Numbered from the stretch's first letter, positions 39,716 through 43,477 are shown. The stretch: 64,000 nucleotides of DNA from Enhydrobacter aerosaccus (GCA_903832005.1 CAIKZO010000132.1:26035-90034), one strand, 5' to 3'. The notes: generated by a model from the letters alone, not told the origin. A program made the numbers and translations.

Positions 39716-41488
39716 TCAGAGCTTTTCGAGTTCGTCGACGAAGCCCGAAATCACGCCCAGCCCCTTGTCCCAGAAGGCGGGATCGGACGCATCGAGGCCG
39801 AACGGCGCCAGCAGCTCCTTGTGCCGCTTCACGCCGCCCGCCTTCAGCATGTCCAAGTACTTCGCCTGAAAGTCCGGCAGACCCGACTGATAGACGGCAT
39901 AGAGCGAGTTCACGAGGCAATCGCCGAACGCATAGGCATAGACGTAGAACGGCGAGTGGATGAAGTGGCCGATATACGACCAGTAGTGCTTGTACTCATC
40001 GTCGAAGGTGAAAGCCGGTCCCAGGCTCTCCTTCTGTACCGCCATCCAGATCTCGCCGATCGCATCCGGCGTCAATTCGCCCTCGCGGCGCTTCGCATGC
40101 AGGCGCGACTCGAAATCGTAGAACGCGATCTGGCGCACGACCGTGTTCAGCATGTCCTCGACCTTACCGGCCAGCATCGCCTTACGCGTCTTTGCGTCCG
40201 GCGCCGACTTCAGCATCGACTGGAAGGTCAGCATCTCGCCGAACACCGACGCGGTCTCGGCGAGCGTGAGCGGCGTGTCCGCCATCAGCGGTCCCTGCCC
40301 CGCCGCCAGTACCTGGTGCACGCCATGGCCCAGCTCATGAGCGAGCGTCGCCACGTCCCGCACCTTTCCCTGGTAGTTCAGCAGCAGGAACGGATGCGAC
40401 GACGGCACGGTCGGATGTGCGAAGGCGCCCGGCGACTTGCCGGGGCTCGCGGGTGCGTCGATCCAACCGGTGCCGAAGAACTTCTGGCCGACATCGGCCA
40501 GCTCCGGCGAGAAGGCGCGATAGGCACCGAGCACGGTCTGCTCCGCCTCGGCCCACGGGATCGTGCGGTCGTCATGCTCGGGCAGCGGCGCGTTGCGATC
40601 CCAGTAGGGCATCGTGTCTACGCCGAACCATTTGGCCTTGAGCTTGTAGTAGCGATGCGCGAGGCGCGGATAGGCGGCCTTCACCGCAGAGGCGAGCGCA
40701 TCAACGACTTCGTCCTCGACCACGTTCGACAGGTTCCGCGCCGACTGCGGCCGCGGATACTTGCGCCAGCGGTCGTCGATTTCCTTGTCCTTGATCAGCG
40801 TATTGGTGATCAGCGAGAAGACCGCGATATTGTCGCCCTGCACCTTGCCGAAGGACTTGGCGGCGTCCTTGCGCACATCGGCATCCTTGTTCGACATCTT
40901 GTCGAGGATCTGCGGCTCGCTCAGCATCTCGTTGCGGAACGGATAGCGCAGCCGCGCGATCGTCTCGTCGAACAGGCGCGACCAGGCGGCACCGCCGACG
41001 ACGGATTGATCGTGCAGCAGCTTCTCGAGTTCGTCGGACAGCTGATGCGGCCGGAACACGCGACGATCGCGCAGCCACGGGCCGTACTTGGCGAGCGCCG
41101 GCTCCTTCATCTTGGTCGCGAGGTCGGCATCCTCGATCTTGTTCAGCTCGAGGCCGAGGAACACGAGCTTGGCGTAAATGTCGTTCAGCTTCTCGGAGAC
41201 ATCCTGGGCAAAGCGGCCGCGCTCGGAGTCCGCCTGATTCTGCGCATAGTAGAGCTGGGCGTAGGAGCCGATGCGGCCCATCCGGTCCGACATCGTCTCA
41301 TACCGTACGATGGCGCCCGCCAGCGCCTTGCCGTCGAGCCCGACTATCTTGCCTTCGTAGTCCTTGGCAAAGGCTTCCGACTCCTCGGCCGCGCGCTTAA
41401 GATCGGCCTGCAGATCGGCGCCGGCGGGGCTCGAATAGAGGTCGGTCAGTTTCCAGGTCGGCAGATCGCCCAGCGCGGCATTCATCAA
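39716..41488 (-). CDS. M3-family oligoendopeptidase (PepF-like)
   Basis: HELGHGVH zinc motif, 590 aa, M3B-like. Confidence 0.85.
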   Translation of the reverse strand: MMNAALGDLPTWKLTDLYSSPAGADLQADLKRAAEESEAFAKDYEGKIVGLDGKALAGAIVRYETMSDRMGRIGSYAQLYYAQNQADSERGRFAQDVSEKLNDIYAKLVFLGLELNKIEDADLATKMKEPALAKYGPWLRDRRVFRPHQLSDELEKLLHDQSVVGGAAWSRLFDETIARLRYPFRNEMLSEPQILDKMSNKDADVRKDAAKSFGKVQGDNIAVFSLITNTLIKDKEIDDRWRKYPRPQSARNLSNVVEDEVVDALASAVKAAYPRLAHRYYKLKAKWFGVDTMPYWDRNAPLPEHDDRTIPWAEAEQTVLGAYRAFSPELADVGQKFFGTGWIDAPASPGKSPGAFAHPTVPSSHPFLLLNYQGKVRDVATLAHELGHGVHQVLAAGQGPLMADTPLTLAETASVFGEMLTFQSMLKSAPDAKTRKAMLAGKVEDMLNTVVRQIAFYDFESRLHAKRREGELTPDAIGEIWMAVQKESLGPAFTFDDEYKHYWSYIGHFIHSPFYVYAYAFGDCLVNSLYAVYQSGLPDFQAKYLDMLKAGGVKRHKELLAPFGLDASDPAFWDKGLGVISGFVDELEKL

Positions 41489-41547
41489 AAACTCCTTGGC
41501 TGTCCCAGATATGGGGCGTTCCCCGTCATCTGACTAGAGCTTTACCT

Positions 41548-41594
41548 CCTCCCCATTCAAATGGGGAGGTGGCGCGCAGCGCCGGAGGGGTCAG
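41548..41594. repeat. Left 47-bp terminal inverted repeat of DUF559 unit
   Basis: CCTCCCCATTCAAATGGGGAGGTGGCGCGCAGCGCCGGAGGGGTCAG. It is the exact reverse complement of 42020..42066 and contains an internal hairpin CCTCCCCAT/ATGGGGAGG. Confidence 0.9.
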
Positions 41595-41604
41595 GCGCCT
41601 TTCG

Positions 41605-41955
41605 TCAATCGAGGCGTCCGTCCATTTCGGTGCAATGCAGAGCGGCATAAATCGTCTCCACGACTTGGTCCGTTCGCGAGAGAACATCGCCATTCCAGAA
41701 ACGGAGGACGCGGAAACCGGCCGACCGGAGAAATCCATCACGCCGCGCATCGTAGGCTTTTCTGTCTACGTGCTGGCTTCCGTCGAGTTCGACGACGATT
41801 GATCCGTCCAGGCTGGCAAAATCACAGATGTAGAGACCGATCTGATGCTGTCGACGGAATTTGAAGCCGGCCAATTGCCGTCTGCGCAAGCGACTCCAGA
41901 GGAGTCGTTCGGCGTTTGTCATCTCTTTCCGAAGACTTCGGACGTAGTGTTGCAT
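41605..41955 (-). CDS. DUF559 endonuclease-domain protein (restriction-endonuclease-like fold)
   Basis: 116 aa with DUF559 signature (...NAERLLWSRLR...FRRQ...DF......VELDG..H...). Lies exactly between the two perfect inverted repeats. Confidence 0.75.
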   Translation of the reverse strand: MQHYVRSLRKEMTNAERLLWSRLRRRQLAGFKFRRQHQIGLYICDFASLDGSIVVELDGSQHVDRKAYDARRDGFLRSAGFRVLRFWNGDVLSRTDQVVETIYAALHCTEMDGRLD

Positions 41956-42019
41956 ACGGTATTGCTACCGTCCGAGCCAGACGAAAATATGGCAGAGATA
42001 CTACCTGGACGAGCATCTT

Positions 42020-42066
42020 CTGACCCCTCCGGCGCTGCGCGCCACCTCCCCATTTGAATGGGGAGG
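42020..42066. repeat. Right 47-bp terminal inverted repeat of DUF559 unit
   Basis: CTGACCCCTCCGGCGCTGCGCGCCACCTCCCCATTTGAATGGGGAGG, the perfect reverse complement of 41548..41594. Confidence 0.9.
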
Positions 42067-42071
42067 AACGC

Positions 42072-42563
42072 TCAGACTCCCTCGGGATCGGCGGCGATGG
42101 CGTCGAGGAACGGTCCGACCAGCAGCGCGGCGAAAGGCTCGCACAGATTCGGGTCGGTCTCCTTGTAGTGACCGGCGGCATCCAGCAGGTTCATGGTGCC
42201 CAGAAGACGGCCATTGTAAAGCACGGGGATGTTCATTGCCGATTCGCAGCCCAGCGAGATGATGAGCTTATGATCGAAAAACGCCCATTCGATGTCCTTG
42301 GCGTTGTAGCCGACCCAGGCCTTCTTCTGGCCGAGGATCTGCTTGTGCCACTCGGTCTCCCGGATTTCCTTGTAGCCGCCGACCGGATATTCCTTGGGCA
42401 TGTTGGTGTAGATGCGCTTCACGCGCTTGCCGTTGGGCGCCACGTAGAGAAGCGTGAAGAGCTTGTGGCCCACCGTATCCTTGGTGCCCTGCTCGACCGC
42501 CTTGAAGATGGCGTCGGTCGGACCGCTCCTGACGGCGGCGATGCAGGTGTCGAGCGGATTCAT
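42072..42563 (-). CDS. Small GAF-like domain protein, translationally coupled to the liv permease gene
   Basis: 163-aa ORF starting MNPLDTC. Its ATG overlaps the livM stop (ATGA). GAF call made by eye, not by search. The track ORF 42072..43295 extends upstream through the livM frame. Confidence 0.5.
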   Translation of the reverse strand: MNPLDTCIAAVRSGPTDAIFKAVEQGTKDTVGHKLFTLLYVAPNGKRVKRIYTNMPKEYPVGGYKEIRETEWHKQILGQKKAWVGYNAKDIEWAFFDHKLIISLGCESAMNIPVLYNGRLLGTMNLLDAAGHYKETDPNLCEPFAALLVGPFLDAIAADPEGV

Positions 42564-43477
42564 GTTGTTCCTCCAGTTTGGGGTTTTGGCGCGCGCGGAA
42601 TGCGTTCGGGCAGCAGCCCGCGCGGCATCAGGCGCAGGACGAGAATGAGGACCACGGCGATCAACAATTCCTTGAGGGCGGCGCGTTGCACGGCCGTGAC
42701 GTAGGGAATGAACTCGACCAGGAAGCGCGCGGATTCCAGCAGGGTCATCACGAGATAGGCGCCGACCAGCGCGCCGGACGGATTGCCAACGCCGCCCGAA
42801 GCGACGCTCAGGAAGATGTACACCGTGATCAACGGCAGGAAGAGATCGGGCGCGATATAGGACGTGAAGTGCCCGTAGAGCGCGCCGGCCAGACCCGCTA
42901 TCGCGGCCGACAGAGCGAAAGCCTGCGCCTTGAATCGCAGCACCGGCTTGCCCGCAACTTGGGCCACTTGCGCATCCTCCCGGATCGCCCGCAGCGCACG
43001 GCCATACGGCGAGCGATCGATGCGCCGCATCAGCACGAACACGACGGCCAGCACGGCCAACAGGATGAGGAGATAGGCCGCATTGAAGTTCTGCCCCAGC
43101 GCCGCCTTGCCAGGGCCGGGAATGCCCGAGATACCGTCGGTGCCCTTGGTCAGCCAGATCTCGTTGGCCGCGAACAGGCGCACGACCTCCGCAAAGCCCA
43201 GGGTCACGATGGCGAGGTAATCCTCGCGCAGCCGCGTCGTCGACAGAACCACGACCAGTCCTGCCACGCCGCCCGCGATCAGTGCCAGCACCCAACCCAC
43301 GGCAATCGGCAGATGGCCCGTCGTCGTCACCAGCGCGGAGGTGTAGGCGCCCACGGCGAAGAAGCCGGCCAGGCCCAGGTTCACCATCCCCGCGCCGCCC
43401 CAGATCAGGTTGAGGCCGAGCGCCAGCAACGCATAGATGCTGCCGATGGTGGCGATGAAGAGGATGTAGTTCAGCAT
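42560..43477 (-). CDS. Branched-chain amino acid ABC transporter permease (LivM-like)
   Basis: 305 aa, multi-TM, LivM family. Confidence 0.85.
   Translation of the reverse strand: MLNYILFIATIGSIYALLALGLNLIWGGAGMVNLGLAGFFAVGAYTSALVTTTGHLPIAVGWVLALIAGGVAGLVVVLSTTRLREDYLAIVTLGFAEVVRLFAANEIWLTKGTDGISGIPGPGKAALGQNFNAAYLLILLAVLAVVFVLMRRIDRSPYGRALRAIREDAQVAQVAGKPVLRFKAQAFALSAAIAGLAGALYGHFTSYIAPDLFLPLITVYIFLSVASGGVGNPSGALVGAYLVMTLLESARFLVEFIPYVTAVQRAALKELLIAVVLILVLRLMPRGLLPERIPRAPKPQTGGTT

Follow-up and report, generated by a model that had tools for sequence, protein, structure and literature searches.

A DUF559 endonuclease-like gene between inverted three-block repeats in Enhydrobacter aerosaccus: a probable selfish cassette

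A 521-bp unit consisting of an intact gene for a 116-amino-acid DUF559 protein and two inverted repeats (arms) that enclose it was characterized in a stretch of 64,000 nucleotides from Enhydrobacter aerosaccus (GCA_903832005.1 CAIKZO010000132.1:26035-90034), which is referred to as the window. The unit is an insertion, and the comparisons described here support a discrete inserted, probably selfish cassette. With modest confidence, we favor a reading in which the DUF559 nuclease acts on its own arms and gene-less pairs of such arms (doublets) are its non-autonomous partners. This reading is built on the insertion, the architecture of the arms and its covariation, the association of gene and repeat across phyla, and the doublets, all of which were observed directly. 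A previous reading of this DNA, made from the sequence alone (the sequence-only reading), had proposed a mobile or selfish cassette, which is supported by the empty sites and the homologous units found elsewhere.

In a repeat search, the arms were 48 nt each, 100% complementary, and 425 nt apart (Table 1). The sequence-only reading had described a 519-bp unit with 47-bp repeats; these are indeed exact reverse complements, while the lengths had to be extended to 48 nt and 521 bp. The single DUF559 gene it had placed between the arms was recovered (Pfam E = 1.4e-39). It had also located the unit between pepF and the liv operon. pepF does follow downstream, and the direct upstream neighbor is a gene for a GAF-like protein, which comes after the liv-type ABC transporter genes. 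The genes are all encoded on the minus strand, and the order is liv-type ABC genes, GAF-like gene, 5′ arm, DUF559, 3′ arm, and pepF.

Relatives with an empty site were found by tracing homologues of the GAF-like protein to their contigs (loci are cited by L numbers). In three sets of relatives, the stop codon of the GAF-like gene and the start codon of pepF are separated by 15-23 nt, without arms and without DUF559 (L216, L208/L209, and L210-L213, whose GAF-like neighbor is 91%, 89%, and 80% identical, respectively). A typical empty junction reads TGA-ccaaggagttcgtga-ATG. The position is thus not always occupied among relatives, and the unit is polymorphic for presence or absence at an otherwise conserved site, as is the case for homing genes. 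In L214 (neighbor 80% identical), an AAA_28 gene is found at this position instead. The same insertion with identical arms was present in two independent metagenome assemblies (L001, L002). The GC content of the unit (57.6%; open reading frame (ORF), 55.6%) is about 8 points below that of the window (65.4%). The closest DNA relatives of the cassette are 72-74% identical, and the homology spans from arm to arm. At the junction itself, the C-terminus of the GAF-like protein (42072-42090) reads ...DPEGV* in the window versus ...DPDIG(S/G)* in relatives, which corresponds to a small indel.

The arms share a three-block architecture. Read toward the gene, each consists of CCTCCCC-AT-tcaa-AT-GGGGAGG (hairpin 1), a T, GGCGC-gca-GCGCC (hairpin 2), and GGAGGGG-TCAG (third block). 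Both arms contain hairpin 1, CCTCCCCAT(tcaa)ATGGGGAGG, as the sequence-only reading had claimed; overlooked there were hairpin 2 and the purine block GGAGGGG, which mirrors the 3′ half of hairpin 1. The third block has no complement in the arm; it repeats the purine half of hairpin 1 in mirror order. Both arms therefore follow the block rule of triplex motifs, that is, a pyrimidine block, its reverse complement, and the mirror of the purine block. In a purine-motif triple helix, the third strand runs antiparallel to the purine strand, with G placed on G and either A or T on A. Judged by its sequence, the third block can fold back on hairpin 1 as such a triple helix on a single strand. Watson-Crick pairing between the third block and the pyrimidine block was considered but rejected, as 5′-GGAGGGG-3′ is not the reverse complement of CCTCCCC and the mismatch is worse in the GGAAGGGGG variant.

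The conservation of this architecture was assessed with 80 metagenome loci retrieved by protein similarity alone (52-82% identity), 67 of which had enough flanking sequence. Strict arms with the third block nearest the gene were found on both sides of DUF559 in 48 of the 67 loci and on one side in 10; of the remaining 9 loci without a strict arm, several are visibly decayed copies. Hairpin 1 occurs in lineage variants (ATTCAAAT, CGTCATACG, ACGCTACGCGT, and CCTTCCCCC.../...GGGGGAAGG), and the third block changes in step. Among the 433 homopurine-stem hairpins of all fetched loci, 283 were followed by a full mirror of the purine half and 11 by a direct copy; for these counts, the commonest type was partly selected by a DNA pattern, and the other types came from the protein-based retrieval. 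Six placements of A are all mirrored (GGGGAGG/GGAGGGG, GGGGGAAGG/GGAAGGGGG, GGGGGAGGG/GGGAGGGGG, GGGGAAG/GATGGGG, GGGGAGAGGA/AGGTGAGGGG, and GGGGGGAGGG/GGGTGGGGGG), in some cases with T opposite A. Chance similarity between low-complexity sequences was rejected on account of these six mirrored registers.

Hairpin 2 retains at least four Watson-Crick pairs from its ends in 75 of 81 distinct arms, which comprise 23 different stem sequences. In most loci, it differs between the two arms; therefore, it is the structure rather than the identity of the ends that is conserved. The perfect match of the two 48-nt arms in the window is unusual in the family and suggests that one arm recently converted the other. 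The hairpin 2 of the 5′ arm of the window also occurs in L014, whose 3′ arm is different. Folded as single-stranded DNA (ViennaRNA, which models Watson-Crick hairpins and not triplexes), the arms reached −15.6 to −17.9 kcal/mol (z = −4.1 to −5.9), the 5′ arm of the window being at −15.7 kcal/mol (z = −5.0). In L003, an extra partial arm (ccccctccagccccttcgggggcacct, 2846-2872) in the orientation of a 3′ arm is located just upstream of the complete 5′ arm, which hints that arms were inserted or decayed there more than once.

The same plan of blocks is shared by the "potential intrastrand triplex" (PIT) elements (Hoyne et al. 2000, cited in PMC4666352) and by the "triplex motifs" of Holder et al. 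(2015), for which the Escherichia coli consensus TM-ECO is given as CCCTCNCCC-N3-6-GGGNGAGGG-N3-GGGNGAGGG (PMC4666352). Triplex formation of TM-ECO in vitro was demonstrated by circular dichroism and nuclear magnetic resonance; the motif occurs 3,610 times in 262 proteobacterial genomes, always in intergenic regions, and in inverted pairs at 5 of 18 sites in strain K-12 (PMC4666352). BoxC structures are treated there as the same kind of element, and a higher degree of rearrangement between E. coli strains is reported for the loci; according to the authors, transposases, integrases, and other mobility functions were never found near triplex motifs, and no gene was associated with them (PMC4666352). 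The window arms resemble PIT elements and TM-ECO in the order of the blocks, in the A or T opposite A, and in being strictly intergenic, multi-copy, and often arranged in inverted pairs. They differ in the 7-nt stem CCTCCCC, in a second "loop" that is a 14-nt hairpin, and in bracketing a nuclease gene. The second connector consists of a T and a 13-nt hairpin (41570-41583) and is no short loop. Published loop limits are 1-6 nt (ITxF) and 0-10 nt (Hoyne et al.), and the TM-ECO loop is 3 nt (PMC4666352). Because the 14-nt connector exceeds the limits, the variant of the window escapes both published searches. The literature search returned no paper linking DUF559 to triplex-motif repeats, but its coverage was incomplete, and this is not proof of absence. 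While DUF559 and triplex-motif repeats are known as parts and the lifestyle is known by analogy from REPIN-RAYT systems, the combination appears to be undescribed.

The arms are not confined to the gene. Species-representative genomes were scanned with the pattern GGGGAGGTG-N7-20-CGGAGGGGTCA, which gave at least 120 stretches (888 kb), mostly from Reyranella and other Reyranellaceae. Among the matches listed, there were at least 199 strict arms, and adjacent arms were paired with the mirror blocks inward in 56 cases, outward in 8, and on the same strand in 3. The gap within a doublet is typically about 28 nt, and some arms abut as GGAGGGGTCATGACCCCTCC, a perfect palindrome of 20 bp. DUF559 is encoded in only 3 of the 120 stretches among the matches listed. 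The polarity of the doublets equals that of the arms around DUF559, and in L155, a 40% identical DUF559 gene exactly fills the gap between two inward arms of another type. The gene-carrying unit is thus the rare form and the doublet the common one, a ratio comparable to that of autonomous elements to miniature inverted-repeat transposable elements (MITEs) or, by analogy, of RAYT genes to REPINs. As in REPIN-RAYT systems, the genomes of relatives hold a gene flanked by inverted repeats that are also present as gene-less doublets. The repeat, for which uniqueness to this locus had been named as a refutation, therefore occurs elsewhere, both in arm-gene-arm units in many unrelated contexts and in doublets that are common in Reyranella. 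In the exact center of some Reyranella doublets, a second, unrelated palindrome (gggagcgcgccac...gtggcgcgctccc) is nested (L089, 1603-1701 and 4184-4284; L177, 2871-2960; L195, 6672-6743). These nested inserts make the doublet centers seem an insertion hot spot for other small repeats.

The association of gene and repeat extends far beyond the Reyranellaceae. A tblastn search against plasmids and chromids gave 33 DUF559 records from very diverse taxa. In 11 of the 12 loci fetched first, triplex-type motifs were located within about 150 nt of DUF559, namely in Azospirillum (two), S. meliloti, Shinella, Sphingomonas, Methylobacterium, Deinococcus (two), N. gonorrhoeae, Synechocystis, and Photobacterium; the twelfth, Picosynechococcus, carries G5-type hairpins instead. 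Together, the 12 loci span Alpha-, Beta-, and Gammaproteobacteria, Deinococcus, and cyanobacteria. Next to the DUF559 genes of S. meliloti, Azospirillum, Enterobacter, Klebsiella, and E. coli, the arms have what is essentially the sequence of TM-ECO. In four 50-kb stretches, 3 of 6, 2 of 7, 5 of 11, and 1 of 3 motifs (11 of 27 in total) were within 250 nt of DUF559, a zone that makes up about 1.7% of this DNA. One Sphingomonas genome encodes three DUF559 paralogs, each with a different arm type, and two of the three lie within operons (sufB-sufC and pntAA-pntAB). In Enterobacter asburiae and Klebsiella quasipneumoniae, the YcjD homologs (62-65% identical to E. coli YcjD) are encoded at chromosomal sites that differ from each other and from that of E. 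coli ycjD. In each, the stop codon is located in the hairpin loop of a motif that overlaps the 3′ end of the ORF, and another motif in inverted orientation comes next.

Several loci display further arrangements. In Sphingomonas parapaucimobilis, cassettes are located within the conserved operons sufB-sufC (L243, 677-1087) and pntAA-pntAB (L244, 674-1069) in the orientation of the operon, with arms overlapping the ORF ends; such cassettes are evidently no block to operon function. Downstream of the Klebsiella quasipneumoniae DUF559 gene (L241/L242, 10364-10590), about three tandem units of ~72 nt, each containing a decayed hairpin (ccctctccctcagcgagaggg), lie between two triplex motifs. Six regularly spaced triplex motifs of two sequence types follow directly downstream of DUF559 in Photobacterium sp. 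GJ3 (L226, 892-1435), on opposite strands and with a period of ~148 nt, similar to clusters of bacterial interspersed mosaic elements.

For E. coli, the association can be compared with published strain data. In K-12, ycjD is the sole DUF559 gene, and 23 motifs have been mapped. A decayed copy of the motif seen in Enterobacter and Klebsiella is found at the stop codon of ycjD, and TM-ECO no. 9 is located 167 nt downstream; we calculate a probability of about 0.003 for such proximity, given 18 motif sites in 4.6 Mb. Between the decayed motif and TM-ECO no. 9, the final ~23 nt of the ycjD reading frame (ggagacggtgctggagaatattc) recur ~100 nt downstream (L207, 1836-1858 and 1940-1962), which looks like the scar of a local rearrangement. 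In phylogroups A, B1, and C, the gene is located between fabI and sapF, where B2, D, E, F, and G carry the eefRABCD operon (PMC12817139). According to the supplementary data of Holder et al., TM-ECO is present in 18-30 copies in K-12, BL21, HS, 55989, IAI1, SE11, W, E24377A, and similar strains, in 6-15 copies in O157, D, and F strains, and in 1-2 copies in CFT073, UTI89, IHE3034, S88, APEC O1, SE15, and other B2 strains (PMC4666352). ycjD was present once each in 3,378 of 5,426 complete E. coli genomes. We take the strains with 18-30 copies to belong to phylogroups A, B1, and C, with ycjD, and those with 1-2 copies to B2, without it. The strain counts fit the idea that the nuclease sustains the repeat population.

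The protein encoded by the unit is a clear member of its family. The Pfam profile DUF559 (PF04480) matched residues 3-106 with profile positions 5-108 of 109 (134.7 bits versus a cut-off of 20.6 bits); the only other Pfam match was a weak one to MTES_1575, and the HUH/Y1 (IS200/IS605-like) transposase typical of REPIN-RAYT systems was not among the Pfam matches. The NCBIfam equivalog YcjD (PRK09767-like) scored 101.7 bits, below its cut-off of 218 bits, so the protein is a family member but not an ortholog of YcjD. A 105-amino-acid version starting at an internal Met is the form present in the protein collection, in which the 116-amino-acid form had no exact match. In an alignment of 16 sequences including E. 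coli YcjD, D45, F46, E56, D58, G59, H62, D69, and R72 are invariant; by sequence, these are putative catalytic-type residues.

The only close relative with a solved structure is PDB 3HRL (E = 7e-24), a structural-genomics "endonuclease-like protein" of N. gonorrhoeae. To our knowledge, DUF559, a very large family with 3HRL as solved structure, has no known role. The profile of the 16 sequences reached 3R3P ("mobile intron protein") with E = 0.007 and Vsr (1CW0) with E = 0.46; 3R3P we take to be the homing endonuclease I-Bth0305I. A comparison with Vsr/PD-(D/E)xK folds had been suggested by the sequence-only reading; hhalign aligned the catalytic Asp and the E-x-D...H region with E. coli Vsr, at only remote similarity (E = 5e-4, probability 31%). 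We predict a Vsr-like PD-(D/E)xK fold, with I-Bth0305I as the nearest relative by sequence profile. In published surveys of PD-(D/E)XK proteins, Vsr, DUF559, and that homing endonuclease form a common clade. PADLOC gave only a marginal partial match to DpdF (E = 6e-4, 53 residues) and no assignment to a defense system, and PHROGs and NCBIfam gave no phage-family or functional lead for the protein.

In the mechanism that we propose, the nuclease would recognize and cut its own arms, folded or as duplex, or the palindrome where two arms meet. Repair and recombination by the host would then carry copies of the arms, alone or together with the gene, into further intergenic sites. The many doublets that lack the gene and share this polarity would be non-autonomous partners, like REPINs for a RAYT or MITEs for a transposon. 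For this sequence of events, we infer the folding into a triplex, the cleavage, and the route of movement. A broader proposal, to which we give a smaller and only tentative credence, is that DUF559 proteins are the missing cognate enzymes of the triplex-motif/BoxC repeats: each lineage would cut its own three-block repeat, perhaps in the folded state, and thereby propagate or maintain cassettes and doublets.

A number of observations weigh against a selfish cassette acting on its own arms. A target-site duplication, which the sequence-only reading had not seen either, was not found: no direct repeat is present at the borders (...TGAGCGT|T... / ...A|GGTAAAGC...) nor in comparison with the empty sites, and the empty site of the relatives holds no doublet usable as a homing target. 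The closest DNA relative found is only 74% identical, so no recent donor was identified. Further arms or DUF559 copies in the 64 kb were found neither with strict and relaxed motif finders nor with tblastn. We know of no biochemical activity of any DUF559 protein, and the evidence for a triplex stems from TM-ECO with its second loop of 3 nt and not from the variant with a 14-nt hairpin present in the window. As a lone PD-(D/E)xK nuclease cannot rejoin DNA, movement would need host functions. The upstream arm in Deinococcus NW-56 has the opposite polarity, and the enterobacterial DUF559 genes have arms on the 3′ side only, so the orientation of arms relative to the gene is inconstant in distant taxa. 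Finally, the E. coli strain counts reflect very few independent evolutionary events, and lineages without ycjD still hold 1-15 motifs.

The strongest competitor assumes that doublets spread by other means and that a free-standing DUF559 homing gene cuts the palindromic centers of intact ones and is copied in by repair, the arms being the two halves of the target. The position of the gene, which is always that of the spacer in gene-less doublets of the same polarity, would be explained directly, and some doublets abut directly in a perfect palindrome of 20 bp; the match of the family profile to the homing endonuclease 3R3P and the other palindromic inserts nested at doublet centers, which behave as insertion hot spots, point in the same direction. 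However, the relatives lack a doublet at this locus, so the arms must have come with the gene or in an earlier, unseen step. In addition, paralogs in one genome each have their own arm type, and the DNA homology between cassettes extends through the arms. On balance, we regard such homing as unlikely.

Two other explanations would give the arms or the enzyme a role for the host. DUF559 might act as a structure-specific nuclease on the triplex or hairpin DNA formed by the repeats and limit the instability that the repeats cause, with a linkage that results from joint travel or recombination. The reported rearrangement of triplex-motif loci between E. coli strains (PMC4666352) would agree with this, as would the fold shared with the repair nickase Vsr, the retention of a single-copy gene at one site over some divergence (L023, L060, L061, L066, L069, L070, and L072), and the single copy of ycjD in 3378 E. 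coli genomes. Left unexplained are the exact position between inward arms in 48 of 67 loci and the homologs of 60-65% identity at different sites in related genera, always with arms attached; moreover, strains without ycjD have fewer motifs, not more. A protective function of this kind is improbable in our view. Still slimmer are the chances that the arms are terminators or RNA-stabilizing stem-loops that shield the neighboring genes or limit the expression of a toxic nuclease, their match being due to gene conversion. Stable folding of the arms as single strands, the 48-bp stem they would form in a full-length transcript (z = −10.9), and the very tight intergenic spaces that the cassettes occupy, among them sites within the sufB-sufC and pntAA-pntAB operons, speak for insulation. 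The bidirectional terminators that the sequence-only reading had named as its alternative are not supported, as no terminator-like site was called at either arm and no T-run follows (the hairpins are followed by TGGCGC and AGGTAA). A terminator would not need the mirror purine block, which covaries in six registers nonetheless, the long RNA stem is not general because the arms differ in the second hairpin in most family members, and gene-less doublets are abundant. Both host-related roles account for the tight architecture less well than the selfish cassette does.

The layout of the unit is summarized in Table 1. The arms are the sole triplex-type motifs of the window; neither arm half has a second occurrence in the 64 kb, and 100 dinucleotide-preserving shuffles produced zero matches. 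In the leader, a block at ~41980-42019 (minus strand; GGT(T/A)GT, ~9 nt, CA(T/C)ATTT.CGCC) is kept across 62 homologous leaders aligned with MAFFT. The sigma-70 promoter scan found no consensus in the leader or at the arms, and by hand, the conserved block fits no sigma-70 spacing; it could represent another promoter type, an operator, or an RNA element. The 44-nt segment next to the pepF ribosome-binding site (aggtaaagctctagtcagatgacGGGGaacgCCCCatatctgggacag) had no match longer than ~14 nt in any fetched locus and may be DNA from the donor flank or a new promoter region of pepF. The Rfam 15 covariance models gave no match at E ≤ 1 for 41000-42600. In read-through RNA of the minus strand (41530-42085), the arms would pair as a 48-bp duplex around the DUF559 mRNA (minimum free energy −278.7 kcal/mol), which, according to this model, would be a plausible substrate of RNase III. 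This stem is specific to the copy in the window, because the arms are non-identical in most family members.

Table 1 Features of the DUF559 unit and its surroundings (positions counted from the first nucleotide of the window; arms named relative to the gene)
Feature	Position	Strand	Description
pepF (peptidase M3)	39716-41488	-	downstream of unit
Gained DNA versus empty sites	41503..42071	-	569 nt = 4 nt + 521-bp unit + 44 nt; junctions of L208-L213 and L216
44-nt segment, 3′ arm to pepF ribosome-binding site	41503..41546	-	absent in relatives; contains hairpin GGGGaacgCCCC
3′ arm	41547..41594	+	exact reverse complement of 5′ arm
3′ arm blocks	41548-41554; 41563-41569; 41571-41583; 41584-41590	+	CCTCCCC; GGGGAGG; second hairpin; GGAGGGG
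DUF559 endonuclease gene	41605..41955	-	116 aa; Pfam match
Leader, 5′ arm to ATG	41956..42019	-	alignment of 62 leaders (MAFFT)
5′ arm	42020..42067	-	T-CCTCCCC-AT-tcaa-AT-GGGGAGG-T-[GGCGC-gca-GCGCC]-GGAGGGG-TCAG
5′ arm blocks	42024-42030; 42031-42043; 42045-42066	+	complement of mirror block; second hairpin; first hairpin
GAF-like gene	42072-42563	-	163 aa; upstream of unit

Catalogues of triplex-motif (BoxC/PIT/TM) repeats cover hundreds of bacterial genomes, and the repeats have been connected with genome instability. The consistent physical link between DUF559 and these repeats, found in taxa as far apart as Reyranellaceae, E. coli, Deinococcus, and cyanobacteria, offers a candidate explanation for each: a candidate protein partner for the BoxC/TM repeats and a candidate function for DUF559/YcjD. 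If the broader proposal on cognate enzymes is true, the units would constitute a new class of mobile or persistent element parallel to REPIN-RAYT, with an unrelated nuclease fold and a non-B-DNA repeat, and E. coli YcjD would gain a function. It would be a second, independent case of a nuclease living with non-autonomous repeats, in which non-B DNA is possibly the recognition element.

Among known systems, REPIN-RAYT is similar in that inverted structured repeats flank a nuclease gene that usually has a single copy, in that many gene-less doublets exist elsewhere, in that paralogs pair with different repeat types, and in that inheritance is partly vertical. In contrast, DUF559 is PD-(D/E)xK/Vsr-like and not an HUH tyrosine transposase, the repeat is a three-block mirror repeat and not a simple hairpin with a GTAG head, and gene and arms together form an insertion polymorphism. 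MITEs and small transposons share the long terminal inverted repeats, the one small ORF, and the shorter gene-less derivatives with the same ends; they are set apart by the lack of a target-site duplication and of a recognizable transposase in the unit and by its ends, which often differ in the second hairpin. With Vsr, the predicted fold and the aligned region of the catalytic Asp and E-x-D...H are held in common, but the similarity is remote, and no dcm-like methyltransferase is encoded near the DUF559 gene of the window. I-Bth0305I (3R3P), the nearest functionally characterized relative by profile (E = 0.007), likewise belongs to the "EDxHD" Vsr-like group and is selfish and polymorphic in its presence. 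That enzyme is larger, has several domains, and comes from a group I intron of a phage, whereas the protein of the window is free-standing, 116 amino acids long, chromosomal, and flanked by structured repeats.

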